Source of the DNA: Acaryochloris thomasi RCC1774
GTDB lineage: Bacteria; Cyanobacteriota; Cyanobacteriia; Thermosynechococcales; Thermosynechococcaceae
DNA: 32,000 nt
Assembly: GCF_003231495.1 (NCBI RefSeq)
Contig: NZ_PQWO01000004.1
Span: 30,001 to 62,000 of the forward strand
Reading direction: 5' to 3'
Made by a program: the position numbers and the translations under genes. Positions 16,049 through 31,403 of the stretch are shown piece after piece (position 1 is the stretch's first letter; each line of letters begins with the position of its first letter). Below the pieces are notes generated by a model. That model was not told the DNA's origin. It saw nothing but the letters and a program-made list of their open reading frames with translations, and made no database searches.

Positions 16049-17662
16049 TTAGATCCCGTACTTCTCTCTCTGATCTTCAATATAGGCGGTTGCATTGCTG
16101 GGGTCTAAGGTATCAAACTTCAGCTTCTCGATGCGGGTTGCTTCAGTCGGTGCTTCTGCCCCTAGCTCTTCTGCCAGTTCACGGGCTAAATCAGTGAGAA
16201 AAACTTCTTCGCCAATTTCGTCATATTTGGCTTGCTCTGGGGGCATGTAGTTCCAGCGGACTAGCTGGGTTGAGATCCAAGTGGCGAAGCTTTTCCAAGG
16301 ATAAGGGTCAAAGTTGATTCGATCGGGGATATCTAAGGTGTTGCCCTGGCCGTCTTCAAACTTGCCGGTCATCACAGCCTCTAAAACATCGACGGGCTGA
16401 TTCAGGTATTCGCGGGGTGCGATCGCATTTGCAACCTCTTTCCGGTTTTCGGCTTTATTGGCGTAGGTGGCTCCATCAATAATGGCTTTATTCAAAGCTC
16501 TAAACGAGTTGGGATGCTCATCAATCCAGGCTTGGGAGGCCGTGAAGGCGCAGCAGGGATGACCTGCCCACAGGTCTTTGGTCAATATGTGTATAAAACC
16601 GATGTCATCCTTGACGACCCGCTGGGTAAAGTTATCCGGCAGGATGAAGGCGTCGATTTGATCTGATTTCATTTTTGCGATCGCATCTGGCGGCGGCAGC
16701 ACGATCAGCTTGACATCCTTATCTGGATTGACGCCTCCGGTGGCGAGGTAGTAGCGCAAAATCAGATTGTGATTGGAGTAGTCGTAGGGAATGCCAATGG
16801 TCATCCCCTTGAAGTCAGAAGGACCGTTGATTTTGCCCAGATACTTTTTGGCAACGGCTATCCCCTGACCGTTGTTGTTTTCGATGCTGGCGAGCTTAGT
16901 GGCAAAGGCAGTGGAACCCAGCCCCAGAGACATGGCGATCGGCATGGGGGCCAACATGTGGGATGCATCCAGTTCCCCCGCGATCACGGCATCGCGGACC
17001 ACGGACCATCCGGCATATTTTCTCAAGGTCACGTTGAGGCCATATTTTTCATAGAAGCCCAAGGGCTTGGACATAATGATCGGGCTGGCACAGGTGATCG
17101 GCAAGAAGGCAATGCTCAGGTCTGTTTTTTCGAGTGCGCCCGTGATGGGTTTGTCTGCTTCTGTCTCGGCGGAATCGGGCTGATTGCTGCAGTTGGCGAG
17201 GGAGACGAGGGCGGCACCGACGGCGATATTGCGTAAGAACTTGCGCCGCGTGAACCCGCCAGAGCGTTGGGCATCGGTGAAAAACTCTCCAGATTTGGGA
17301 CCAAAGGCGGCTGCAAAAGCTTCATCGAGTCCACCTGCGAGTTGAATGAGTTCGTTGACAAGCCGCTCTCGTTTGGGGCTGCCTTGGGAGGCCATTTTCA
17401 CGAACAGTGCCGTTCGCATTTCGGCTTGGGTAATGGTGTTTGCGACTTCAAGGGCCTCGGGCCTGTAGTAGCGCATCTTGATCAGGTCATCGATCAATTC
17501 AGACGGCTGCTGGGGCATATCGGCCATGTACTTCCAATGATCTTGCGAGGGATGGAAGCCACCACAGAATTGGCACTGAATGTCTAGCTCTGCCAACTCT
17601 CCTCGCTGCACTGAGAGCTGCTCCCAAGAGGACTTGGATGAGATCGATGAGACTTGGAGCAT
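16049..17662 (-). CDS. NrtA/CmpA-like (NMT1/SsuA-fold) ABC-transporter substrate-binding lipoprotein with a Tat-type signal and a long N-terminal extension
   Basis: 537-aa ORF. LSIAFLPITCASPIIMSKPLGFYEKYGLNVTLRKYAGWSVVRDAVIAGELDASHMLAPMPIAMSLGLGS closely follows the NrtA/CmpA core. A twin-arginine motif plus lipobox (FTRRKFLRNIAVGAALVSLANCS) starts only at residue ~137. The true start is uncertain (17662, or internal ATGs such as 17395). Confidence 0.8.
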   Translation of the reverse strand: MLQVSSISSKSSWEQLSVQRGELAELDIQCQFCGGFHPSQDHWKYMADMPQQPSELIDDLIKMRYYRPEALEVANTITQAEMRTALFVKMASQGSPKRERLVNELIQLAGGLDEAFAAAFGPKSGEFFTDAQRSGGFTRRKFLRNIAVGAALVSLANCSNQPDSAETEADKPITGALEKTDLSIAFLPITCASPIIMSKPLGFYEKYGLNVTLRKYAGWSVVRDAVIAGELDASHMLAPMPIAMSLGLGSTAFATKLASIENNNGQGIAVAKKYLGKINGPSDFKGMTIGIPYDYSNHNLILRYYLATGGVNPDKDVKLIVLPPPDAIAKMKSDQIDAFILPDNFTQRVVKDDIGFIHILTKDLWAGHPCCAFTASQAWIDEHPNSFRALNKAIIDGATYANKAENRKEVANAIAPREYLNQPVDVLEAVMTGKFEDGQGNTLDIPDRINFDPYPWKSFATWISTQLVRWNYMPPEQAKYDEIGEEVFLTDLARELAEELGAEAPTEATRIEKLKFDTLDPSNATAYIEDQREKYGI

Positions 17663-17703
17663 GACGGTTTGGCCCTGCTAAGAGATAGATTTTCTTCTCT
17701 CAA

Positions 17704-17721
17704 TTAGAACGCTCATTCTAA
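17704..17721. promoter_or_regulatory. Palindromic candidate operator TTAGAA-CGCTCA-TTCTAA upstream of the binding-protein / MBL operon
   Basis: The 6-bp arms are perfect. The site lies 42-59 nt upstream of ATG 17662. It matches the site at 27775-27792 at 15 of 18 positions, next to the TetR gene. The gene-strand half-site TAGAAT resembles a -10 hexamer. Confidence 0.5.
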
Positions 17722-17792
17722 TCAGATTTTGTACTCACGGATACGATTCACCCGATGTACCTCATAGGGCAATTCTTGAGAGAGCAAGCTTT

Positions 17793-19598
17793 TTATTGTG
17801 ATTTAACATTCCCTAAGCACGGTGGCGGCTCTAGGCCAAGAGCTTGTTCCAGAGTCCAACCTAAGAACTTACGCTTTGAGAAAGTGCCTTTTTTTACCCC
17901 AAAGTGTGTGGCTGCTGCTGCATGGCTAGGAAAGTCGATACCATTAATCCGACAAGGTTTTAGAGAACTTTTCTTATCTAGAGGTACTTTTCTTGTCAAG
18001 CGATCTTTGGCTTGATGATAGGTCAGATTATATTTTGGGGCTAAGGCGACTGCCGCAGCATGTCTGCTTTTGTATCTAATTCCTTGATACTCAAAAGATT
18101 TTCCGCTACTTGGTCCTTTCGGCTTGGTTACGGCCTCTTCTGGTGTCATACCTTGATTATTAATACGGTATTTGAGAGTGCTTGTACCTAGCCCAAAGGC
18201 TTCTGCAAGTGCCTTTATAGACGGATATTCTTTACCAAATGCGGTTTGAACTTTTCCGTGAACACGCTCAACCTTTGATTGGACGCTTACCCATTCAACG
18301 TTATCTACTTGCCATGGCAACCTGTCATCAATTCGAATGATATGGTGTGCTGACTTTTCGTATTGGCCGATATCTTCAAACCATTGATCATAATCTTTCC
18401 ACTCATCACAGATTTCTCCAGGACTTGTGTACCTATTTCACATTGATTTCCAACGTCGCCAAATACCTGTTCCTGCCATCTGGTGATCGGAATGAGTTCT
18501 TGCGGGTTCAGTCAACTCCTTATAACTGCGGATCCCTTTTCCATAGCGTTTGATAATTACATGTTGAGCGACTCCAGACTCTTCATAGAGTTCTTCGGCT
18601 AATCCTGCAATACCAATAAATTTTCGTTCCCCTATATAAATGATTTTTCCCCTGCGTCGAGCTGTCTCAGCACCTGCCACCGAGTTATATCCCTTCGGTG
18701 TCAAAGTATCCGAATTCTTAATCCAGTATGATTCTCTAGAACCCAATAGTGTTTCATGAATATTGTTCTCTAAGACCTCTAGACGAAATGATTCACTACC
18801 ATATTTCCGAATTGCCTTGTGAAAAATTGTATTACTTCCCTCCTTAGCACTTTGTTGATGACCATTCCATCTCTTTTGGGCAGAGAAATATGTCCGACCA
18901 ACATAAGACAATCCTGTTTTTGTACAGTTTATTTTATAAATTAGACCTTTTGAGGAGGGAGGGGCAAAATATTCCGGCCATATGTCAATCTTTTGGCTTA
19001 TATAGCTATCACCTTTACTCCGGTTCTTGAAAGTTCCATATTCTTCTTCCAGACCAACTAATTTTAAAAATAGCTTCAAAGACGGGAATGTCGAGCCTGT
19101 ATGTTCAGAGAACTGCTGCCCTGTGTAAGTAAATGGCTTCGAGTTCCCTGCCGGGTATTTTTCTCTGTATTCTTGAATATCAAGATTCAATGCATCGATT
19201 ATCTGAATATCCTTTAAAGGAATACTAAATCTTTTTTCAAGCTTCCTCAGCCGTTGTTGGAAACGCTTATAGCTGCCACTATTTTCGTCTCTACAGGCAT
19301 TGTACAGTTCTTGACGCTGCCACTTCCTGCCTTTGAATTGTATGTATGAACGTCTAGTTCCGTACTTTAATCGGTAATCACTCACACTCATGAAGAGAGC
19401 ATCATGTAAGCGTTCATGTGGTATCTCAGTCGCAACTTTATGATATTTTCTGCAATATCCAAAAATCCTGCTTCCGACCTGTGAATTTGATGCTGTAGCA
19501 CTGACTTCCCGACACAAATCCTTAATGGTTTGATATGTTTTTCCTAAGTAGATAACAGTTGTTCCTTGTCTTTGCGCTGTCTTTTTTAGCTCTTCCAT
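17793..19598 (-). pseudogene. Free-standing GIY-YIG homing-endonuclease-like gene interrupted by a single in-frame TGA (18438-18440)
   Basis: ORFs 18438-19598 and 17793-18320 are in the same frame. The GIY-YIG domain reads GLIYKINCTKTGLSYVGRT...KRWNGH...FHKAIRKYG..FRLEVLE...RESYWI...GYN. My translation across the stop gives ...IWRRWKSM*NRYTSPGEICDEWKDYDQWFEDIGQYEKSAHHIIRIDDRLPWQVDNVEWVS with no other stop. The downstream part has three NUMOD-like helix-turn-helix repeats (for example PSIKALAEAFGLGTSTLKYRI and FPSHAAAATHFGVKKGTFSKR). The region is AT-rich. Confidence 0.7.
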
Positions 19599-19818
19599 CT
19601 AGTTATAATAAATAAGGAATAACTCACATAAATATCTAATAAGTATTCCCACTCTTAGACTGGAATTAGCTTTTCTATTACTTGAACGTCTGTAAATATT
19701 GAAGATCTGAAATGATTAGAGATACAAGTCCAGCCGATTCTTACAATTTCTATCTCGAGTATCAAAACCGTTGGAGTCTAAAGGACAAGTGCCTAATTGG
19801 GTGTAAATGGGTGTATAA

Positions 19819-20863
19819 ATGGGTATGTTCCCCACCGCCTCATTGCAAATCACCCAGGAAATACTCCTCCTGATCGCCGAGATCGATGAATTCAAAGGAG
19901 CTTGGCGTGCCCTAGGTTCCCTTGCACCAGAACGACTATCAGCCCTCCGGCGAGTTGCCACCATCGAAAGCATTGGCTCCTCAACTCGTATCGAAGGCAG
20001 CAAGCTCTCAGACAGAGACGTTGAGCAGCTTCTATTCAGCCTAGAAGTCAACCCGCGATCAGCAGGAAGTCGCAGGCTATGCCGAGGTCATGGAAACAGT
20101 CTTCACGTCAGGGTCAGCCATTGCGATCACAGAGAATCACATCAAACAGCTTCATCGTGACCTCCTGCGCCACAGCAATAAAGACGATTGGCATCGAGGC
20201 AATTACAAGACCTCATCGAATAGCGTCGCCGCCTTTGACGCAGACGGAAACCCAGTCGGCATTGTATTCGAGACCGCCACCCCATTTGACACGCCCCGTC
20301 TCATGGCTGAACTCGTGGCCTGGTTCAACGAAACGACCCAAGAAAAGACACTTCATCCTCTGCTTACCATCGGCATTTTTGCAGTCGTATTTTTAGAAAT
20401 TCATCCCTTTCAAGATGGTAACGGTCGCCTGAGCCGGGTCTTAACCACTCTGCTACTGCTTCAGGCAGGCTATACCTATGTCCCATACAGCTCTCTTGAA
20501 AGCGTCATTGAACAAAACAAAGAAGGTTATTCTCTTGCGCTACGCCAAACGCAAGGGACAATCCGCACCAATATCCCTGACTGGACACCTTGGCTGTTAT
20601 TTTTCCTAAAGGCTCTGCAGCACCAAATGCTGCGGCTCCGCACAAAAGTCGAACGGGAGAAATTACTGCTGGCAAAGCTCCCCAAGCTATCAGTACAAAT
20701 TCTGGACCATGCCCGCAATCATGGCCGCATCACAATTGGCGATGCTGTGACCTTAACGGGAGCAAACCGAAATACTCTAAAGCAACACTTTCAGAACCTA
20801 CAGAAGCGCGGCCTACTTGTACTGCATGGTAGTGGACGCGGTGCATGGTACAGCCTTGCATAG
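19819..20863 (+). pseudogene. Fic-family (AMPylase-type) protein gene carrying a frameshift near 20045-20056
   Basis: The Fic motif HPFQDGNGRLSR lies in ORF 20090-20863. ORF 19819-20160 encodes the family's N-terminal part (IDEFKGAW...VATIESIGSSTRIEGSKLSDRDVEQLL). The expected continuation SRDQQEVAGYAEVMETVF is read in the next frame, which opens after a TAG at 20042-20044. Confidence 0.7.
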
Positions 20864-20885
20864 CTCAGGGATCAGTACTCAACCG

Positions 20886-21050
20886 CTACGCAAACTCCTG
20901 ATGAGCTTGCTTAACTTTGCTCATAGTGACTGGGAGAGGAAGGTTCTCCTCCATCGCCGCCAGCAGAAACTCACGAGCGAATTCAGGATCCTTCAAATCC
21001 TCAGCTAAACCGATATTCCAATCTCGACTACGTTCTTGTTGAAACATCAT
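20886..21050 (-). CDS. 54-aa ORF below the ORF-track cut-off; looks like the N-terminal fragment of an HTH-type addiction-module antidote protein
   Basis: My translation is MMFQQERSRDWNIGLAEDLKDPEFAREFLLAAMEENLPLPVTMSKVKQAHQEFA. The motif DW..GL.EDLKDPEFA.EFL.AA.EE is what I recall from the N-termini of cyanobacterial HigA-like antidotes. The HTH part itself is missing. The ORF lies 19 nt downstream of hepT. Confidence 0.35.
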   Translation of the reverse strand: MMFQQERSRDWNIGLAEDLKDPEFAREFLLAAMEENLPLPVTMSKVKQAHQEFA

Positions 21051-21068
21051 TTCCGTTGCCAACAAAAA

Positions 21069-21437
21069 TCATTCTGATGCATTATCTGGCTCTTCACTCG
21101 GTGGCAACAAAATCTCTAATTTTTCCAAGATCTCGGGCAGATCCGCAGCCAACACCGACCAAATCCGCTCAGCCCGAATTTGGTCATAGCGATGAGCAAT
21201 TACATTGCGTAACCCAATTATTCCAGCCCAATCCACCCCAGGATGAGCTTGCTGAGATTCAGATGATAGACGGCGAGCGGCCTCACCTAATATTTCTAGC
21301 TGTCGCTCTACAGCACTCTGAATCAGTTCACTATCGAGATACGCTTCAGAGGAGACTCCAGTTGTAAATGCTTGAATGCGCTGTATTGCTTGCACCATAT
21401 CCCAAATAGAGGCGGCATCACGGTCATCGAGAGGCAT
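21069..21437 (-). CDS. hepT: HepT (DUF86) RNase toxin of a type VII MNT-HepT toxin-antitoxin pair
   Basis: 122-aa ORF. The Rx4HxY motif is present as RNVIAHRY. LEILGEAARRL is typical of DUF86. The ORF overlaps the MNT gene by 14 nt. Confidence 0.85.
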   Translation of the reverse strand: MPLDDRDAASIWDMVQAIQRIQAFTTGVSSEAYLDSELIQSAVERQLEILGEAARRLSSESQQAHPGVDWAGIIGLRNVIAHRYDQIRAERIWSVLAADLPEILEKLEILLPPSEEPDNASE

Positions 21438-21768
21438 AAATCACCTTATGAGTCCGCATGATTTCAGCTCGACGGTAGGGATTTGTAAGCTGTTCCTTCT
21501 CGGCTACATCTACCTGACGCCCAAAGAGTCTCTCTAGCTCATCCTTCATACGGACCCAATCTAAAAGGCTCCAGGAGTCTCCAGAGGCGAAGCACACTAA
21601 AATATCCACGTCACTATCGGCCCGGAAATCGTTCCGCAGCACTGAACCGAACAGAGATAGTTCTGAAATCATCCAGCGATCGCAAAATCCTGCCAGCACC
21701 GACTCAGAAATCTGCAAGCGCTCCCAAATCAACTGATTTAGATCCGCAGAACTTGCCTGAATTGCCAT
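21424..21768 (-). CDS. mntA: MNT minimal nucleotidyltransferase antitoxin
   Basis: 114-aa ORF. The nucleotidyltransferase motif LSLFGSVLRNDFRADSDVDILV (GS...SDxD) is present, and the gene lies immediately upstream of hepT. Confidence 0.85.
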   Translation of the reverse strand: MAIQASSADLNQLIWERLQISESVLAGFCDRWMISELSLFGSVLRNDFRADSDVDILVCFASGDSWSLLDWVRMKDELERLFGRQVDVAEKEQLTNPYRRAEIMRTHKVIYASR

Positions 21769-22002: not shown

Positions 22003-23220
22003 CTACTGATGGGCAACTGTTACAGTCACACCACCATCATTCGGGAGTAGCAACGCGACCCGTGCTGCAGGAACCAGAGGGACCAGTGAAATTGGTTGGC
22101 CCTTTCCAAAATCTAGCTCTCCTAACGGAATCCGCGACAGATTGGTCACCAGCAGTCCTGCGGTTGGATCAGAGACGTGTAGATGCGACATTTTCTCCAT
22201 TCCATAGGTTTCGCGATAGGCTTCCAGGGAGGCTAGTGCTTGCTCAATATCAGTTGTCCTTTGTCCTAAAATCATTGCGTTCAATCGCTGAGCAATTTCT
22301 GCTAGGGATAGACTATACATCTCTGCCAGCGTCAACTGACAGGTCGCACCTCTAATAGCATTGCCGAAATAGTTCAGCGGAATAACCTTGCGATAGATTC
22401 TGCGGAAATCAACGGCACAGTTGAGCGTCAGTACTGTCGCAGGATCAGCCTCAGGGTGCCACCGCTGACTATATTGTTTCCATAGATAGGCACACAGAAC
22501 TGCGTTATCGGAGAATTTTCCAGGCAGACAGCTCTCTTTCAAAGCAGTGAGTGACGAGTGAGAAATAGGAAAAGATTCCCACGCAATTGCATCTATGTCA
22601 GGAAACTGGCGTTCTCCTTTGATGAATAACCCTGTGTTCTGACTAAACGCGGTATCGAAATCACGATCATCAAGCCCTGCGTCCTTGTTGTTGGATACTG
22701 AAAGCAGCCTATCGCGCTCATGATTAGGAATTCGATAGGTTTCTCCTCGACATGCTTTTGCCCAGGATGATAAAAAGTAAAAGAAGCTATAGCCGTCTAC
22801 CAGGCAGTGAGCCATATTGACTACCAGTGCGGATCCGTTGTGATACTGGTGCAGGCAAAATCGAGCCAGAGGTTTATCGGCTTCGGCCTTAACTTCTAAA
22901 GAGTATGCCGCCAATTCAGAGGGCAAAGTTGCGATCGCAATTCTCTCATCGCTAGAATGCTCCACAACTTCTAGCTTGGTAGGCTCTGAACAGGGTTGAA
23001 TATAGGCTCTATTGTGCTTAAAGACCAATTGACCGCTTACAGGATAGAAATGAGTGAGAGTCTTCTGCAGTGACTCGCTCAATGACTTCGCAGACAAGAT
23101 ATGGTCATAAAAAATGACGAACTGAATGGAATAGGGATTGCGACCCGTGAACGGATAGTCAGGGGGAGCCAATGGGATGGAAAATGTCGGTTGTTGACTC
23201 ATGAAGCTCCGTGTGGACAA
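22003..23220 (-). CDS. BAHD / HXXXD-type acyltransferase (plant-type Transferase family or condensation-like fold)
   Basis: 405-aa ORF. HXXXD occurs in NMAHCLVDGYSFFYF, and a DFGWG-like motif (LDFGKGQP) lies near the C-terminus at the family-typical spacing. Confidence 0.65.
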   Translation of the reverse strand: MSTRSFMSQQPTFSIPLAPPDYPFTGRNPYSIQFVIFYDHILSAKSLSESLQKTLTHFYPVSGQLVFKHNRAYIQPCSEPTKLEVVEHSSDERIAIATLPSELAAYSLEVKAEADKPLARFCLHQYHNGSALVVNMAHCLVDGYSFFYFLSSWAKACRGETYRIPNHERDRLLSVSNNKDAGLDDRDFDTAFSQNTGLFIKGERQFPDIDAIAWESFPISHSSLTALKESCLPGKFSDNAVLCAYLWKQYSQRWHPEADPATVLTLNCAVDFRRIYRKVIPLNYFGNAIRGATCQLTLAEMYSLSLAEIAQRLNAMILGQRTTDIEQALASLEAYRETYGMEKMSHLHVSDPTAGLLVTNLSRIPLGELDFGKGQPISLVPLVPAARVALLLPNDGGVTVTVAHQ

Positions 23221-23338
23221 AGGACATGCACTCTACTATTCACCATGATTGTGTAGGAGGGTTTGTGTCAATCAGCTTCAGCAGACGCTCCCGATGAGAT
23301 CAAACAGGTTTTGTTGCCCTTCACGAGACTCAATCGAC

Positions 23339-24577
23339 ATGAATCAGCACAGCCCCAAAAATACGGAATCTTCCGCTGCTGAGAAAGGCCCGTGCTCAAA
23401 CTTACATCCTCGGTATTTATCGCACCAGTCAAGATGTGCACACCTAGCATCTGATGGACCGGCAGGGTCTCTCCGTCATCATTCCTTCGGTCTTTTACGT
23501 GATCCCGAAGCCGTTAAGTCAGAGATCCTGATGGCGGCTGATTCTATTCGAGACGCAGGACATTTCCATATTCTGAAGGCAACCCCTCAAAGTTGCTTCT
23601 GGGGGTTCTTCGACCGCGACTTGCCCTCTGTTCTAACCATCGATTCAGGAGATATTGTCTATGTAGAAGCCCTGACCCATCGGGCTGGAGATGCGCCCGA
23701 TGTGATGATGGATGAGGGAATCGCAGCAGTTTACAGTCAAATTACCGATCGGGGGCCGGGTGGTCACCTGATGACAGGTCCGATCAAAGTCAACGGAGCG
23801 CAGTCAGGCGATACCTTAATGGTCCGGGTTTTGAAGACAGAGCCTCGCCTTCCCTATGGCAGTAATCTTGCGGCTCGTTGGGGCTATCTCTACGATGCCT
23901 TTAAAAAAGAGCGAATTACCATTTATAAGCTTGATCTCAATGCAGGATTAGCGTATCCAGAATTTGGTTTTGATCTGCAGGGCGATGCGCTGTGCAACAA
24001 GCCCGGGCTGATTTACCCCCCTGATTCCGCTCGTCAACCGTTCCAGGCCAAGGTTGCTGTCCCCATGCGCCCTCACTTTGGCGTCATGGGTGTTGCACCG
24101 GCTGCAAGGGGTCGAGTGAGTAGTGTTCCACCCGGGGCTTTCGGAGGAAATATTGATAACTGGCGTTTAGGTGCAGGTGCCACTATGTACTATCCCATTT
24201 GCAATGAAGGAGCCAACTTTTTCGTTGGCGATCCTCACATGGCCCAAGGCGATGCAGAGCTTTCTGGAACCGCTATTGAGGCTTCTATGAATGCTTATTT
24301 GCAGATTTTTGTGATTCATGACTTCCCCATTTCCAATCCAATTCTAGAAACAGATGCTTATTGGATTACCCACGGTTTCGATGAGGATTTGAATCACGCC
24401 ATGCGGCAGTCAGCAGAAGAAATGCTGGATTTTTTGGTCAATAAGCGCGGGATTAGTGCTGATGAAGCTTATTCACTCATGTCAGTGGCGGTAGATTTTG
24501 GGATTACGCAGGTTGTCGATACCAAGCGAGGCTGTCATGCAGCGTTGCCAAAAGACCTATTTACAATGGACCTGTAA
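23339..24577 (+). CDS. Acetamidase/formamidase (FmdA/AmdA) family amidohydrolase
   Basis: GGNIDNWRLGAGATMYYPICNEGANFFVGDPHMAQGDAELSGTAIEASM is typical of the family. The ORF opens with TTG at 23249. Candidate ATGs lie at 23294, 23339 and 23531. The conserved region begins near MAADSIRDAGHFH (23531), so the real start may be 23531. Confidence 0.75.
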   Translation: MNQHSPKNTESSAAEKGPCSNLHPRYLSHQSRCAHLASDGPAGSLRHHSFGLLRDPEAVKSEILMAADSIRDAGHFHILKATPQSCFWGFFDRDLPSVLTIDSGDIVYVEALTHRAGDAPDVMMDEGIAAVYSQITDRGPGGHLMTGPIKVNGAQSGDTLMVRVLKTEPRLPYGSNLAARWGYLYDAFKKERITIYKLDLNAGLAYPEFGFDLQGDALCNKPGLIYPPDSARQPFQAKVAVPMRPHFGVMGVAPAARGRVSSVPPGAFGGNIDNWRLGAGATMYYPICNEGANFFVGDPHMAQGDAELSGTAIEASMNAYLQIFVIHDFPISNPILETDAYWITHGFDEDLNHAMRQSAEEMLDFLVNKRGISADEAYSLMSVAVDFGITQVVDTKRGCHAALPKDLFTMDL

Positions 24578-24755
24578 AGTTAGTTTTCAGTCATGCTCCC
24601 AAGTATTCTAAAGATGGTGGCCTGCTGTGTCTGCCCATCTTGCACCGAAGGTTCTGGGGCTGAAAATATCAAAAAAGTTTTCTGGCAGATAGTTTTTTCT
24701 TTAAAAAGCTTTTACACTCTTGGTAGTTTGGGATTTCTCGCTTGGGTCAGGACCT

Positions 24756-25640
24756 ATGGAAGAGACCGGCTTGCCCTTATTGGGACAACTGATTTACACC
24801 AGCTTTGAGCAAGAGGGATTTAAACTTCTTGCGAGTGAACAAGTTCCCACACAAATTCAACAATTTTTTCACTGTCATATCGTTGACCGGCATTGGGACT
24901 CATTAGAGCCTCCTCCTCCCGAACATCGGGCCGTTTACTTATATCAGACAACATTGGCTGATTGTTTGTTTGGCTGGTTCTATAACGATGCGATGGACGA
25001 ATTCGGGCGTAACGTTCCGTATTTCATCTGCTATTACTACTCAGGGCAGCAGCACTCTGTCCCGTTGGACAAAATCTTTTCATGTTTGCACAAAGGACCA
25101 GTGGCTTGGTTGGATAGAAAGTATGTTCCAGCTTCTTTGGACCCGATCATCGTTCCCAGTCCACTGAGTTATCAACCGGTTCGAAAGGGAGTTGAAATTC
25201 CTGTTAACGTACGTCTACAGTGTGACCTTTCACTGCAGCAAAAGCATTTGCTCAACATCAGTACTTCGGCCTTCGCTCATCAGGGTTCTACGCCGCTTCA
25301 GGTGAATACAAACTCTACTCGTTCTCACACTCCTATTCTGAGGGAGACTAAACCTACCACTTACAATTCGCATATCGTGATTGTTGAAGTCCAAGGCTGG
25401 ATTGAGGCGATTCAAGCAATACAAGCGTTGAAGCAATGCAAAACTGTAATACTCAAGCTGCATCGGCTGGAGCCTATGTTTGTGCAACGGATAACAGATT
25501 TTGTTCGGGGTGGAATCTTTAGCATTGATGGTCGCGCTGAGTGGCTCAATGACCAAACGTTATTATTGCTGCCAAAGGCAGTAGCAAACAATCTCAGTAC
25601 ACATAATAACTCAGGGTATATGCATCGCTCGGCAAGTTAA
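24756..25640 (+). CDS. Protein with an unrecognised ~200-aa N-terminal domain fused to a C-terminal SepF (DUF552) domain
   Basis: C-terminal SHIVIVEVQGWIEAIQAIQALKQCKTVILKLHRLEPMFVQRITDFVRGGIFSIDGRAEWLNDQTLLLLPKAV aligns without gaps to B. subtilis SepF [72 protein letters not shown]. I do not recognise the N-terminal part (LIYTSFEQEGFKLLAS...LFGWFYNDAMDEFGRNVPYFICYYY). ATG is at 24756; the ORF opens with TTG at 24720. Confidence 0.6.
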   Translation: MEETGLPLLGQLIYTSFEQEGFKLLASEQVPTQIQQFFHCHIVDRHWDSLEPPPPEHRAVYLYQTTLADCLFGWFYNDAMDEFGRNVPYFICYYYSGQQHSVPLDKIFSCLHKGPVAWLDRKYVPASLDPIIVPSPLSYQPVRKGVEIPVNVRLQCDLSLQQKHLLNISTSAFAHQGSTPLQVNTNSTRSHTPILRETKPTTYNSHIVIVEVQGWIEAIQAIQALKQCKTVILKLHRLEPMFVQRITDFVRGGIFSIDGRAEWLNDQTLLLLPKAVANNLSTHNNSGYMHRSAS

Positions 25641-25825
25641 CAGGCTATGCTAAATTGCACGGCAAAGCTCTGCAAAGGTGCACTATTTCTACCGCCTGAT
25701 TATTCTTGAGAGGTAAGCGGATGCTCATGCTGCAGACAGGCGAGAATGCCGCGAACGGGGGCACGGCTCGAAGGTAGCGTTCTCGTCAGGAAACGATTTC
25801 TCCTACTCTTTAAAAAAGATAGCGC

Positions 25826-27067
25826 TCAACCTTCTTTAGTTAAGGCATAAAGCATTTTCTTCAACTGTTTAATTGCAGGCGTCACGATCGCAACAAAGTA
25901 AGCTTCTCGCAACCGACGCTCTTCAGGACTGCCATGTACATAGGCTCGCGCACCCGCATGGAGCATTGCTGCATTGGCTGCCTTCACCGACATCTCACCC
26001 GCCGTCAGTCTGGCTTGCACTACGTCCCGCATTAATGATTTTGAGATTGGACCATCTAGCTGATCTAGCTCTTCGCCTAACCCATAGGCGTGCTGCCGCG
26101 CTGCCGTTAATTCCGCCTCTAGATCGCTGGGCTGATCATCTAGAAAGCAGTTGACATGACCTAGCCGCCGTTGATATCGCTGCATGAGCTGGATGCAGCC
26201 CGCTACTAGGCCCAGGCCCATCCCTACCTGAGTCAAAATAAAGCCTGGACGGATCTGCTCAATGTAATTTTCGCAAGGGTCTGCTAACAGATAGTTTTCA
26301 GGCACAAAGGCATCACGAAAGACGCAGGCAAACGTTCCTGTCCCTTCCAAGGCGATGAACTGCCCACATCTCCGCAGCGAAACGCCTTCCATCTCATCGG
26401 AGACAATTGCCATTAGAGAACTGTCATCCGTGGCGTGTTGAGCGACGACTCCGAAATAATGCCCTGGCCCTAAATTAGAGACCCAGGGAAGCTGGCCGTT
26501 GAGGATGTATCCGCCCTCGACTTTGGTTGCCTTGATCGCGATCTTTTCGATGCCCGCGAAAAACTTCATTGGATTGGAGAGGCCCGTCCCAGATAGAACT
26601 TCGCCGCTGGCGACCTTGGGCAGTAGCTCTGCTTTTAGGGCTTGGTTGTGCGTGTTTTGCAGGTACCAAGTGCAGGCGACCTGACACCAAGCGATGAATC
26701 CTGTAGATAGGCAAGCCTTTGAGACTTCTTCAATAGATTGAATTGCACCCTTGAGGCTAATGCCTTCGCCACCGAATTCAGGTGCAACCGCTTGTTGAAA
26801 AGCACCAGAAGCACCGAGCTTATGCATAATCTGGTCGGGATATTCGCCCTCTAGGTCAATAGCCTGGACCTTTGGGTTTAGGTCACGCTCTACTACGCTT
26901 TGGATAGTTGCGATGGTCTCCGACCGGCCTGCCTCCGAAAGAGGAGCTTCGCTAACGGCCATTGCATCTACTGGCGCTAAGAGATCTGCGGGATATGTAG
27001 AAGTGCTAGACTCAACCGGCTTGGAATCCACCGATGAGTCAGGATTAACAGCGATATCTTGCAGCAC
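25826..27067 (-). CDS. Acyl-CoA dehydrogenase-fold flavoprotein
   Basis: 413-aa ORF with the ACAD-like N-terminal helical, middle beta and C-terminal helical layout (for example GLSNPMKFFAG and ...HAGARAYVHGSPEERRLREAYFVAIVTPAIKQL). The start is ambiguous: GTG at 27067 or ATG at 26962. The N-terminal ~35 aa are low complexity. Confidence 0.75.
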   Translation of the reverse strand: MLQDIAVNPDSSVDSKPVESSTSTYPADLLAPVDAMAVSEAPLSEAGRSETIATIQSVVERDLNPKVQAIDLEGEYPDQIMHKLGASGAFQQAVAPEFGGEGISLKGAIQSIEEVSKACLSTGFIAWCQVACTWYLQNTHNQALKAELLPKVASGEVLSGTGLSNPMKFFAGIEKIAIKATKVEGGYILNGQLPWVSNLGPGHYFGVVAQHATDDSSLMAIVSDEMEGVSLRRCGQFIALEGTGTFACVFRDAFVPENYLLADPCENYIEQIRPGFILTQVGMGLGLVAGCIQLMQRYQRRLGHVNCFLDDQPSDLEAELTAARQHAYGLGEELDQLDGPISKSLMRDVVQARLTAGEMSVKAANAAMLHAGARAYVHGSPEERRLREAYFVAIVTPAIKQLKKMLYALTKEG

Positions 27068-27240
27068 CAGAGCACTCCTGTCTTAAACAAACAATCAATG
27101 ACAATCAAAGTTGAAGCAATAACCCCAGCGGGACATATTCAAAGATCAGAGAGGAAGCTGAGGACTTAGATTCTCCCTTTCTCAAGGAAAACTTTATTCT
27201 CGTTTCCCCACTGATCAAGAGGAGCTAGGAAGATCTCTGT

Positions 27241-27762
27241 TTAGGCCATAGCAACAGAGATGGGCATCGGGCGGCTCAGCGTATTAGACACTGGAGACCA
27301 TTCGTTCGCATGCTGAACTAGCGCATCTAATTCTTCGCGGCTAGCGTCGCCATCGATATCTACTTTGACTTCCACTGAACTGAAGCCAACCTGGGGTTTT
27401 TCTAATTCTCCCGTACCCCAAGTGCTGCTGATGTTGATTTTGCCGACCAACTCGACTTCCAGCTTTGTGAGCGAAATTCCTTTGGCGGCGGCGTTGGCTT
27501 GAATACCGACGACAAGACAGGAGCCAAACGCGCCTAAAACAATTTCAGAAGGGTTGTGGGCAGTGTTGTCACCCAGCAATCCGGGGGGTTCGTCAATCAC
27601 AAACGGTTCGAGGTCTCGGGCATGGTTGAGGCTGCGCATCTTGCGATCGCAAACCGTCCTCACCGTCAGCGTCTTCTGCTCCTCTAGGTCCTCGCTATTC
27701 TTGGCAATCAGATTATCTAAATCTTGTTTATCAATCGATGCAATGGCCGTGGCTTCAGACAT
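27241..27762 (-). CDS. OsmC/Ohr-family protein
   Basis: 173-aa ORF. HNPSEIVLGAFGSCLVVGIQANAAAKGISL matches the OsmC-family core (NP.E.L.A...C). It lies downstream of and on the same strand as the TetR gene. Confidence 0.8.
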   Translation of the reverse strand: MSEATAIASIDKQDLDNLIAKNSEDLEEQKTLTVRTVCDRKMRSLNHARDLEPFVIDEPPGLLGDNTAHNPSEIVLGAFGSCLVVGIQANAAAKGISLTKLEVELVGKINISSTWGTGELEKPQVGFSSVEVKVDIDGDASREELDALVQHANEWSPVSNTLSRPMPISVAMA

Positions 27763-29136: not shown

Positions 29137-29604
29137 CTATTCAGGAGAGTCAATTAGCCCTGGATGATCCTCTGGTCGTGGACCGAGCGGCCAGTGAAAC
29201 CGTCGCTCTTCTGTCTTAATGGGGCGGTCGTTAATACTCGCTTCCCGCCGCCGCATTAGACCGGCTTCATCAAACTCCCAGTTTTCGTTGCCGTAGGCGC
29301 GATACCACTGTCCCGCATCATCGTGCCATTCATACTGAAAACGCACCGCAATCCGGCTATCGCCAAAGGCCCATAGTTCCTTTACGAGGCGATAGTCTAA
29401 TTCCTTTTCCCACTTGCGCTGCAAGAAGGCCCGAATCGCCTCTCGTCCCTGGAAAATCTCGGCTCGATTGCGCCAGAAACTATCTTTGCTGTAAGCCATC
29501 GAGACTTTTTCAGGATCACGATTATTCCAGGCATTTTCGGCAGCGCGAACCTTCACTTTTGCCGTTTCTAGAGTGAAGGGTGGTAAAGGAGGCTTGGTTT
29601 CCAT
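29137..29604 (-). CDS. DUF1348-family (NTF2/SnoaL-like fold) protein
   Basis: [73 protein letters not shown]...[30 protein letters not shown] is a near-consensus DUF1348 sequence. ATG 29604 is preferred over the TTG at 29634. Confidence 0.8.
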
Positions 29605-29654
29605 TTTTAAGCAATCAGGTACAACGTGGGTCAAGAGAAAAAAGGACTACTGCA

Positions 29655-30017
29655 TCATGGGGCTGGGGAGCTATCTTTGCAGTTCAAAAGCTGGGCCATC
29701 TGTGCTTCGAGTTCACCAGCTTCGAGCACGCCAGACTTGACGGCGACCTTTTCTAGGGCTGTGACCCAGCATTGATAGTAGTCCCATTCGGGGTCGTCGA
29801 GATCGTGGGTAGCTTCCCATTCGCCGATGGTTTCAATGAGGGTCTGGCGGAATTCTTCCCATTCGTAATGGCCTTGCTTAGACAGTGCGATCGCAACTCC
29901 AAACGCCATCTTCTCCCAATCGCGATCAAAATGTAGATGCCCGTCCTGTCTGGGTGGAGCCTCTTCGGGAGACCCCATCAAACTGGTGGCCGCAAAATGC
30001 TCAAACTTAGTAAACAT
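29655..30017 (-). CDS. Nitrile hydratase accessory (activator) protein of the small beta-homologue type
   Basis: 120-aa ORF. Its ATG lies 1 nt after the alpha-subunit stop (TAG-G-ATG). HFDRDWEKMAFGVAIALSKQGHYEWEEFRQTLIETI resembles the NHase accessory-protein family. Confidence 0.75.
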   Translation of the reverse strand: MFTKFEHFAATSLMGSPEEAPPRQDGHLHFDRDWEKMAFGVAIALSKQGHYEWEEFRQTLIETIGEWEATHDLDDPEWDYYQCWVTALEKVAVKSGVLEAGELEAQMAQLLNCKDSSPAP

Positions 30018-30018
30018 C

Positions 30019-30645
30019 CTAAGCCGCCTTCACTGTGGCAACACCCATCATCGCCTCTGGCGTTAGCAAGCCTGTCAACTGCTCTTCACTCATGCCTTCG
30101 GTCCCGGCTGGACGCATGGGGAGAACCCACCAACGAATCTGAGCGCTGCTGTCCCAGACCTTGACCTGAACTGAATCATCAAGCTGGACGCCAAATTCAG
30201 ATAAGACCACGCGGGGTTCTCGCACCACCCGCGCTCGAAACGTCGGATCTTTAAACCAGTAGGGCGGCAGTCCCAGCGTTGGCCAGGGATAGCAGGAGCA
30301 GAGGGTGCAGACAATCACGTTGTGGACTTCGGGGGTATTTTCGACAATCCGCATGTGTTCGCCTTCCGCACCTGACATCCCCTCGGGGAAGTCCATTCTT
30401 TCACAGGCGGCATTGCAGTCCTGGAGCAAGAGTTCTTTGAACTCTGGATCGACCCAGGCTTTAGCGACGATTTTGGCTCCGTTGAATGGTCCCATCTCGG
30501 TTTCAAAGTAGCCGAGAATATTATTGACGGTTTCGCCGGTAATGATGCCTTTTTCAATCAGCAGAGATTCGAGGGCTTTCACTTTGGCGGCGCTAACAGT
30601 TTCACGGTCAGCCCCATGCTTGAATTCTGGATAGTTGCTGGGCAT
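30019..30645 (-). CDS. nthA: Nitrile hydratase alpha subunit, cobalt type
   Basis: 208-aa ORF. The metal-binding claw VCTLCSCYPWP carries the Co-type signature CTLCSCY (Fe-type is CSLCSCT). AGGAGA lies 5 nt upstream of the ATG. Confidence 0.9.
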   Translation of the reverse strand: MPSNYPEFKHGADRETVSAAKVKALESLLIEKGIITGETVNNILGYFETEMGPFNGAKIVAKAWVDPEFKELLLQDCNAACERMDFPEGMSGAEGEHMRIVENTPEVHNVIVCTLCSCYPWPTLGLPPYWFKDPTFRARVVREPRVVLSEFGVQLDDSVQVKVWDSSAQIRWWVLPMRPAGTEGMSEEQLTGLLTPEAMMGVATVKAA

Positions 30646-30656
30646 GTGATTCTCCT

Positions 30657-31403
30657 TTAAGCGGCTTCGACGTAGGCTTCAAAGATGTCGTTGTAGTAAA
30701 CGACATTGGGTTCAGTCACGGACTCGTCCCACAAGTCTTCGGCATGGAAGACCAGACTATAGACCGGCATGGGAGTACCAATCCCGTCTGCGGTTGGGAA
30801 AAAGTAGGTAAAGGCACCTTCGTAAACTTTGACCACTTCGGCAGTGTGACCTTTGAGATTCCCTGGCAGGCGACTGTGTTCACCGGGAGCAACGTTTTTG
30901 ATCCGCACTTTGTCGCCGACGCTGAATTTTGGGGGAGCGGGTTGCGATCGCATCGGTGAATCGCCTTCGCGCAGGTACTTCTCAACTTGGGTATCAATCG
31001 CGGCATCGCCGCCGCTGGGTAAAGGGGCTTCTGCTTTAGCACTGTCTGCTAGAATTTCAGCCGTGCGGGCATCGAGTTCTTCTTGAGTGATGTAGCCCTC
31101 TTCCACAAAAAAGCCAGAAATGCCGCCCAGCCACTTTTCGTAGTAGCGCAGCCGAAAATATTCAAAGGGATGTATTCCCTCAGCTCCCATACGCAGATGG
31201 CCCCAGGTCCAAAAACTCTTGAACTGGGTCGGGACTTGATCAATTTTGTAGTCGGGGCGTGAGGAGTTTAGATGGTTACTGAGGGCCATCATGGCGGTGT
31301 GAATGCCAAAGATGCGCTTCTCCCAGGGTTCAACGAAGACCTCTAGTTCGGGGGTGATCGGGTCTAGCCCTTCTAGTCCGCCGAGATTGTGCTGTAGTTT
31401 CAT
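30657..31403 (-). CDS. nthB: Nitrile hydratase beta subunit
   Basis: 248-aa ORF immediately upstream of nthA. It has an N-terminal HNLGGLEGLDPI...EPWEKRIFG and a C-terminal SH3-like part (FSVGDKVRIKN...HSRLPGNLKGHTAEVVKV), as in NHase beta subunits. Confidence 0.85.
   Translation of the reverse strand: MKLQHNLGGLEGLDPITPELEVFVEPWEKRIFGIHTAMMALSNHLNSSRPDYKIDQVPTQFKSFWTWGHLRMGAEGIHPFEYFRLRYYEKWLGGISGFFVEEGYITQEELDARTAEILADSAKAEAPLPSGGDAAIDTQVEKYLREGDSPMRSQPAPPKFSVGDKVRIKNVAPGEHSRLPGNLKGHTAEVVKVYEGAFTYFFPTADGIGTPMPVYSLVFHAEDLWDESVTEPNVVYYNDIFEAYVEAA

Follow-up and report, generated by a model that had tools for sequence, protein, structure and literature searches.

We analyzed a 32-kb stretch of DNA from the cyanobacterium Acaryochloris thomasi RCC1774 (contig NZ_PQWO01000004.1, positions 30,001 to 62,000; hereafter, the window) and describe a gene on its forward strand that joins a core domain of the division protein SepF to a large N-terminal domain (N-domain). 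Neither the N-domain nor its fusion to SepF was found to be described in the literature that we searched. The SepF part is already known in kind; what is new is the way in which the domains are combined and the N-domain family with its GTPase association.

Structure of the fusion gene and its orthologue

According to both the list of open reading frames (ORFs) and the sequence, the gene was a single unbroken ORF of 294 amino acids followed by a stop codon (25638-25640). The full-length AlphaFold2 model was divided into four parts, namely the N-domain, a disordered linker, the SepF core, and a disordered tail (Table 1). The predicted local distance difference test score (pLDDT) was below 50 for residues 186-203 of the linker and for residues 276-290. 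The linker sequence was not conserved among the other members of the N-domain family, and the tail was conserved in the close orthologue P0001 alone. Translation from the in-frame TTG listed in Table 1 would yield MPLLGQLIYTSF, which fits the N-terminal consensus of the family, MxLLLGQLVYTSF, better than the product of the ATG start, and a well-spaced, Shine-Dalgarno-like GGAAGAG was located 6 nt upstream of it. The TTG may be the real start of the gene.

Table 1 Features of the fusion gene, in window coordinates.
Feature	Position	Strand	Basis
Complete coding sequence of the N-domain/SepF fusion	24756..25640	+	ORF list, sequence, orthologue P0001, ratio of non-synonymous to synonymous substitution rates (dN/dS)
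Candidate true start codon, TTG	24771..24773	+	5 codons past ATG 24756; family consensus and upstream motif; inferred
N-domain, residues 1-175 (structured 8-172), putative longin-like module of cyanobacteria	24756..25280	+	AlphaFold2, Foldseek, HMMER
Linker, residues 176-205, flexible, Ser/Thr/Pro/Asn-rich	25281..25370	+	AlphaFold2 pLDDT, dN/dS
SepF core, residues 207-276, β-α-β-α-β-β, short-paralogue type	25374..25583	+	PF04472, Foldseek, type-A hidden Markov model
C-terminal tail, residues 277-294, disordered	25584..25637	+	AlphaFold2 pLDDT

In canonical SepF, a membrane-targeting helix is joined through a linker to a dimeric core that binds FtsZ. A preliminary description of the locus, made from the sequence alone, had noted that the N-terminal amphipathic helix was missing. 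Indeed, the N-terminus of the window protein was strand β1 of a globular domain, and no amphipathic helix was seen in the linker, which was polar and disordered, in either the sequence or the model. The same description had reported a SepF core fused to an N-terminal region of about 200 residues that could not be assigned to any family. The Pfam and NCBIfam scans described below, together with the AlphaFold2 model, bore out the fusion to a domain outside the public family models, whereas the size had to be revised to a globular part of about 175 residues followed by a disordered linker of about 30.

The orthologue P0001, from Cyanobacteria bacterium P01_A01_bin.17 (GCA_039814705.1), was 93% identical to the window protein and showed the same N-domain-linker-SepF layout; its 6-kb contig was syntenic downstream of the gene (ACAD, OsmC, TetR, DUF1348, and nitrile hydratase). 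Between the two genes, dN/dS by the Nei-Gojobori method, calculated from few substitutions (22 synonymous and 17 non-synonymous), was 0.21 for the whole gene. The N-domain had a value of 0.14, the SepF core 0.29, and the linker 0.34, the highest within the gene. Purifying selection acts on the N-domain, which is conserved. We also considered an origin of the fusion by sequencing error or assembly chimerism, since the preliminary description had raised the possibility that the N-terminal part is a separate gene joined by such an error. This origin was rejected because P0001, P0040, P0043/46/47, and P0167, in separate assemblies and lineages, also carry N-domain-SepF fusions.

The N-domain

No match to residues 1-200 was obtained in Pfam-A or NCBIfam at E ≤ 10, ten other members of the N-domain family had no match in Pfam, and a PDB sequence-profile search with the N-domain gave nothing meaningful. 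Relatives were collected by two routes. A profile built from the first homologues retrieved 74 N-domain clusters from a collection of 5.8 billion proteins, and when 1.84 billion representatives were scanned exhaustively with HMMER, 189 N-domain proteins were obtained at E ≤ 1e-3, corresponding to about 190 clusters at 50% identity. There was no twilight tail of distant relatives, because 183 of the 189 were matched at E ≤ 1e-10. In almost all of these representatives the N-domain began at or near residue 1. Furthermore, a scan of GTDB species genomes yielded 83 N-domain loci, nearly all of them cyanobacterial and often with two or three paralogues per genome, in Gloeobacterales, Leptolyngbyaceae, Chroococcidiopsidales, Pleurocapsales, Microcystaceae/Snowella, and Nostocales; the species of the window was missing from the GTDB representatives recovered, the best match among which was 52% identical. 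On these matches, the N-domain is a sharply bounded family of its own that is specific to cyanobacteria. Mapping of the phylogenetic distribution had been suggested in the preliminary description, and the scans of the protein collections and of GTDB placed the N-domain in cyanobacteria and its SepF fusion in a few lineages.

All 11 invariant residues of the family (Q11, W47, Q64, F72, G73, W74, D81, P88, L111, G114, and G145) were present in the window protein. These residues are unlike a catalytic set, which favors a binding domain. The window lineage was the most divergent of the family, with at most 53% identity to any non-orthologue.

The N-domain was modeled with a pLDDT of 91.3 and a predicted template modeling score of 0.87, and in the full-length model its residues 8-172 had a pLDDT of about 90. 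Its elements followed the order β-β-α-β-β-β-α, an extended segment, a helix, and a strand; DSSP assigned strands at residues 9-17, 21-27, 57-64, 69-80, and 86-96 and helices at residues 32-46, 104-113, and 150-161. The order of the first seven elements (β2-α-β3-α2) is what we take to be the longin (SNARE-like) topology. When the model was examined with Foldseek, as the preliminary description had proposed, the only matches other than spurious ones were weak, and the top ones were all longin domains: TagF (probability 0.99, template modeling score (TM-score) 0.38), FNIP2 from the FLCN-FNIP2-Rag-Ragulator complex (probability 0.93), and Npr3/Nprl3 from SEAC/GATOR1 (probability 0.6-0.77). The model thus suggests that the fold is likely to be longin-like. 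Matches to GFP-like folds were rejected as spurious, with a root-mean-square deviation (rmsd) above 10 Å and a probability below 0.2.

The SepF core and its relatives

The Pfam model of SepF, PF04472, matched residues 207-276 over model positions 1-70 of 72 (E = 1.4e-12; 48.1 bits against a gathering cutoff of 27), and phmmer with the SepF domain alone found the SepF structures of B. subtilis and C. glutamicum (E = 1e-4 to 8e-3). In the AlphaFold2 model, residues 207-273 had a pLDDT of 87-94, and Foldseek fitted the core to the structures 6sat, 6scs, 3zih, and 8hzt with a TM-score of 0.76-0.89 and an rmsd of 1.8-2.7 Å. Residues 207-276 are a true SepF core. Hence, the assignment of the last ~75 residues to SepF in the preliminary description was upheld, including by the PF04472 match, for which that description had proposed a search.

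A profile built from the SepF domains of the fusion proteins retrieved two groups. Type B was canonical cyanobacterial SepF, with the signatures NVIGMPG, VVLNL, and HQERIGESIFLF and 34-40% identity to the window domain. Type A was made up of short, core-only proteins of 80-143 amino acids that lacked the membrane-targeting sequence (MTS), carried the signatures VILKL and HTEW(I/L)GEQTFLF, and were 45-52% identical to the window domain. The type-A genes were single-domain and stood alone at unrelated loci outside division clusters. Examples are P0209-P0223, P0227, and P0234 (L083:1369-1710, L084:4276-4542, and L085:6001-6291), which have the signatures VILKL and HTEWIGEQTFLF and differ from canonical SepF. 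We found no literature on such short paralogues among the papers searched, and they apparently constitute an unstudied second SepF class in cyanobacteria.

In hidden Markov model scores, the window SepF domain was assigned to type A (86 bits against 66 for type B), as was that of P0040 (150 against 121), whereas P0167 was assigned to type B (141 against 99 for type A) and the P0043 group was ambiguous (about 100 for type A and about 105 for type B). By its scores and identities, the window core derives from the short SepF-like paralogues of cyanobacteria. This bears on the idea that the protein is simply the canonical SepF of the organism with an odd N-terminal extension, or else a decaying chimera with no function. 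The divergence of the window N-domain within its family would agree with that idea. However, the short paralogues are the group into which the SepF domain falls; the window protein has no MTS, no linker of the canonical type, and no (N)VIGMPG motif; an unbroken ORF is present in two assemblies, with the low dN/dS and the full set of invariant residues given above; and both domains were modeled with high confidence. We therefore consider this explanation very improbable.

Exchangeable C-terminal partners and repeated fusion to SepF

The C-terminal partners of the N-domain were highly varied. A single transmembrane helix followed by a WD40 propeller was found in 23 of 128 representatives, and a caspase domain (Peptidase_C14) in at least 13 of 64; these tallies were taken partly from listings of the 25 commonest Pfam families. 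Other partners were Roadblock/LC7 (sometimes with V4R), GAF, periplasmic binding domains (Peripla_BP_6 and PstS-like), pentapeptide repeats, and PF26309, and some proteins ended in a transmembrane helix only or carried no further module. In view of these highly variable modules, the N-domain seems to behave as a constant docking domain with exchangeable outputs.

Two subsets of the family showed further conserved features. The N-domain-Roadblock/LC7 fusions (Microcystaceae, Snowella, and others), which end in a conserved (L)YRGRR, were found at L005, L033, L056, L058, L060, L066 (9970-11137), and L070-L080, mostly with no adjoining GTPase gene; the pairing of a longin-like domain with Roadblock recalls eukaryotic GTPase-regulator platforms. 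A Cys-rich C-terminal motif, NQSIIIC(A/S)CW(L)S, was conserved in P0020, P0023, P0026, P0027, P0031, P0038, P0041, P0042, and P0050 and was also listed for L018:7366-8128. It is a candidate lipidation or metal site.

SepF was a rare partner: among the matches listed, it occurred only in the window/P0001 lineage, P0040, P0043/46/47, and P0167. The N-domains of these four lineages were each nearer to members lacking SepF than to one another. That of P0040 was 72% identical to a transmembrane-type member and 62% to P0043; that of P0167 was 77% identical to a Roadblock-type member and at most 43% to the other SepF fusions; and that of the window protein was 53% identical to its nearest non-SepF members and 47% to the other SepF fusions. 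Because of these identities, which are pairwise nearest-neighbor values and not a formal phylogeny, and because two SepF subtypes are involved, the comparison suggests that SepF was joined to the N-domain independently at least three or four times. Such repeated fusion is evidence of the Rosetta-stone type that the N-domain system is functionally tied to SepF or FtsZ.

P0167 (L087:641-1819; 392 amino acids) is an independent fusion to a canonical-type SepF that keeps an NLIGMPG motif, and an internal NKLKDFV segment in it resembles the SepF MTS. The gene upstream of it encodes a thymidylate kinase and not a GTPase.

Residues for FtsZ contact

In C. glutamicum SepF, the substitutions K125E/F131A abolish binding to the FtsZ tail (PMC7118173). 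At the K125 position (R120 in B. subtilis), the window protein has Trp, P0001 has Arg, the other fusions have Leu or Lys, and the type-A proteins have Trp or Arg, Trp being typical of the short paralogues. At the F131 position (F126 in B. subtilis), the residue is Leu in the window protein and P0001 and Phe in the short paralogues. The position thus remains hydrophobic, the DF..GG motif is kept, and the Gly mutated in the B. subtilis variant G109K is retained (DFVRGG). FtsZ binding may have been retained by the window core, and the suggestion in the preliminary description of a specialized factor that associates with FtsZ or antagonizes SepF is plausible. As to the K125-equivalent critical site itself, the codon for residue 257 (25524-25526) is TGG in the window, and the Arg of P0001 differs from this Trp by a single-base change.

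Alternatively, the SepF-like core might be only a dimerization or polymerization scaffold that oligomerizes the N-domain, with no contact to FtsZ or the divisome. SepF cores are obligate dimers that can polymerize (PMC7118173), the residues for FtsZ contact are not conserved, and the core stems from short paralogues encoded outside division clusters, all of which would suit a scaffold. Mere oligomerization is hard to square with P0167, in which a canonical SepF with NLIGMPG and an MTS-like helix is used, and with the repeated recruitment of SepF-type domains although many simpler dimerization modules exist; the hydrophobic residue at the F131 position and the DF..GG motif likewise speak for more than a scaffold. 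We hold the scaffold function to be rather doubtful.

A DO-GTPase2-like GTPase encoded next to the N-domain family

When all ORFs within 5 kb of the N-domain family genes were clustered, the dominant neighbor was a P-loop GTPase, which adjoined the N-domain gene in 53 of 82 loci. In 36 of those loci the GTPase gene immediately preceded the N-domain gene in the same orientation, the two being separated by -59 to +220 bp. The GTPase has 260-490 amino acids and carries GQRGVGKT (G1), WxDxPGE (Walker B/G3, with a conserved Glu), and TKCD (G4), followed by a C-terminal transmembrane helix; a subset adds C-terminal TPR repeats. Among the SepF fusions, the P0043/P0046 lineage has a GTPase gene of the transmembrane-TPR type that is convergent and 46-71 bp downstream of the fusion gene. 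Further examples of the GTPase family are found in L003-L082 (such as L003:8962-9946 and L039:12516-13980), at L001:8869-10237, and at L086:5926-7017.

For all nine GTPases tested, the best Pfam match was DO-GTPase2 (PF19993; E = 1e-6 to 2e-2). The alignment spanned nearly the whole model in seven of the nine, and one sequence exceeded the gathering score (28.8 against 27 bits). Faint similarity to Gtr1/RagA and RagC/D was also observed. DO-GTPases are TRAFAC GTPases with a Glu in Walker B; the partner protein GAP1 is encoded downstream of them, often with C-terminal transmembrane, extracellular, or effector domains, and the systems were reported to be "nearly completely absent in cyanobacteria" (Kaur, Burroughs, Iyer & Aravind 2020, eLife; PMC7159879). 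The family to which the N-domain belongs and its GTPase neighborhood shift the likeliest mechanism from an odd SepF to a SepF module carried on a GTPase-associated adaptor.

A GTPase/partner pair of this kind also raises the prospect of conflict. DO-GTPase/GAP1 pairs have been read as conflict systems in which GAP1 carries varying fused effectors (PMC7159879). The fusion protein could then be the effector arm of such a system, in anti-phage defense or programmed growth arrest, and its SepF module would poison Z-ring assembly when activated and so halt division of the infected or stressed cell. The N-domain is fused to caspases, as counted above, and to other death or signaling modules, several paralogues occur per genome with rapid turnover of architecture, and an imbalance or excess of SepF blocks division through competition for FtsZ (PMC5717166). 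PADLOC, however, gave no match for the fusion protein, the GTPase, or a Roadblock-fused member, and the WD40-fused P0102 matched just the repeat-type model HEAT-ARM_XIII. In the window, no hallmarks of mobile elements or defense islands were found directly around the gene, and many family members carry domains that are sensor-like and not toxic (WD40, periplasmic binding proteins, GAF, and Roadblock). An effector role in conflict is clearly unlikely.

Proposed function of the fusion protein

In the window protein, the helix of canonical SepF is replaced by an N-domain with a genetic link, in the majority of relatives, to a transmembrane GTPase. Docking to that GTPase is the most economical model. 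We propose that the protein is a soluble adaptor of two modules, in which a GTPase-docking N-domain delivers a SepF-type FtsZ-binding or dimerizing module; we put the probability of this reading at about 0.5. The N-domain would dock onto, or regulate, a membrane GTPase of the DO-GTPase2 type, as GAP1 and the eukaryotic longin GTPase regulators might suggest. The SepF core would form homodimers, or heterodimers with SepF, and bind the C-terminal tail of FtsZ. A SepF-type FtsZ-binding module would in this way be placed under GTPase control, and the nucleotide state would decide whether it is recruited to the membrane or let go. Two outcomes can be envisaged. The protein might serve as a membrane tether that depends on the GTP state, with the transmembrane helix of the GTPase standing in for the missing amphipathic helix, or it might act as a regulated competitor that draws FtsZ or SepF away and so slows division, for which the block of division by an imbalance of SepF (PMC5717166) is a precedent. 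The identities and modeled folds of the domains, the distribution and gene neighborhoods of the family, and the recurrence of the fusion are observations; all of the binding events and the physiological outcome in this adaptor model are inferred.

Several points weigh against the adaptor model. The most serious for the window protein is the missing GTPase gene: hmmsearch found no DO-GTPase2-like gene in the 32-kb window at E ≤ 10, and no GTPase gene was present on the 6-kb orthologous contig or in L002. The partner, if there is one, would therefore be encoded elsewhere or have been lost in this lineage. Across the family, 29 of the 82 loci had no adjoining GTPase gene, many of these being Roadblock fusions or short contigs. 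On the side of the N-domain, the longin assignment rests on topology and on weak Foldseek scores: no PDB structure matched at E ≤ 1e-3, and the longin matches had E ≥ 1e-2 with a TM-score of about 0.35. Nor did the N-domain of the window protein or of ten other members show a sequence link to GAP1-N1 or GAP1-N2 in Pfam, so that homology with GAP1 is unproven. On the side of the SepF core, the FtsZ-contact residues K125 and F131 of C. glutamicum are replaced by Trp and Leu, no short cyanobacterial SepF-like paralogue has yet been shown to bind FtsZ, and a canonical sepF was not confirmed in this genome.

Tentatively, a wider picture is possible, although we incline to doubt it as a whole: cyanobacteria may own an undescribed DO-GTPase/GAP1-like branch, made up of a membrane-anchored DO-GTPase2-like GTPase and a longin-like partner domain, of which several lineages captured SepF as an output. 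If true, this would give a GTPase-gated FtsZ tether or a division brake and would directly wire a switch of the small-GTPase type to the prokaryotic cytokinetic ring. Cyanobacteria have no FtsA, and SepF is their essential FtsZ anchor. Little is understood of how cyanobacteria couple division to signals, for instance those of development, stress, or infection, and SepF on a GTPase-associated adaptor would be a concrete, testable device for such coupling. The unannotated family, with its ~190 clusters from Gloeobacterales to Nostocales, pairs with a DO-GTPase2-like GTPase in a phylum in which such systems were reported to be nearly absent. The combination of a longin-like domain, Roadblock, and a GTPase echoes the architecture of eukaryotic Rag and Rab regulators.

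Local context in the window

The gene lies between an upstream formamidase gene and a convergent downstream gene for an ACAD-fold protein, and further neighbors encode a BAHD-type transferase, OsmC, and TetR. No division genes were found around it in the window. The annotation of the window genes thus agrees with the preliminary description, which had placed the fusion gene between these two neighbors and outside any division cluster. A scan for promoters and terminators around the gene gave counts not above those for shuffled sequence.

The window contains 20 HIP1 sites in 32 kb. The HIP1-free stretch to which the preliminary description had drawn attention does exist, at 22938-27643, yet it is not remarkable, since a similar-sized gap is present at 16684-21676. 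We rejected it as a sign of foreign DNA, since its length falls within the usual variation and the GC content of the region is only mildly lower (45-47% against about 49%).

Among the other genes of the window, those for the α and β subunits of nitrile hydratase and for a DUF1348/SnoaL protein (29137-31403, - strand) are a few kb from the formamidase/acetamidase gene (23339-24574, + strand), and the region could be a neighborhood for nitrile or amide catabolism. On the orthologous contig, PIN-domain genes are inserted among these genes. Upstream of the fusion gene, a GIY-YIG domain protein and a Fic/DOC family protein are encoded at 18438-19598 (- strand) and 20090-20863 (+ strand), respectively.

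Comparison with known systems

SepF is known as YlmF/SepF in B. subtilis, SepF in C. glutamicum, Slr2073 in Synechocystis, and Alr0487 in Anabaena. With these proteins, residues 207-276 of the window protein share the core fold, the QR..DF..GG motif, and the Gly equivalent to G109. The window protein differs in that the N-terminal membrane-targeting helix, the canonical linker, and the (N)VIGMPG motif are lacking, that a 175-residue globular domain precedes the core, that the gene is located outside a division or pipY-proC type neighborhood, and that canonical cyanobacterial SepF is less close to the core than the short paralogues are. With the type-A paralogues it shares the VILKL and EW(I/L)..QT(F/L)L signatures and a core with no MTS; unlike it, they are single-domain proteins, and no N-domain or GTPase gene is present near their loci. 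SepT (All2460) was rejected as a relative, its architecture being unrelated.

The longin GTPase regulators (FLCN/FNIP, GATOR1 Nprl2/3, SEAC Npr2/3, and TagF) have the same β2-α-β3-α2 order as the N-domain, and both they and the N-domain family are GTPase-associated. The identity is 7-13%, and the N-domain adds an extended segment, a helix, and a sixth strand (residues 114-172). The structural scores are weak, and common descent is not established.

The DO-GTPase/GAP1 systems differ from the cyanobacterial pairs in several respects. The N-domain gave no GAP1-N1 or GAP1-N2 match in Pfam at E ≤ 10, and no GAP1-M, GAP1-C, GASH, or FNIII was present among the matches listed for family members, with the neighbor clusters lying outside that Pfam screen. 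The cyanobacterial GTPase has a C-terminal transmembrane helix with or without TPR repeats, whereas the described ones have N-terminal zinc ribbons. SepF is not among the fused domains described (no mention in PMC7159879), and the window itself is without a GTPase gene. The likeness lies in the organization: DO-GTPase2 is the best match of the neighbor GTPase, in which the DxxG of Walker B is followed by the diagnostic Glu, the N-domain gene is usually directly downstream of the GTPase gene, the C-terminal transmembrane, extracellular, or effector modules of the partner vary, and several paralogous systems occur per genome. By this analogy, we regard the N-domain as a probable functional counterpart of GAP1-N, either as a very divergent homologue or as an analogue.

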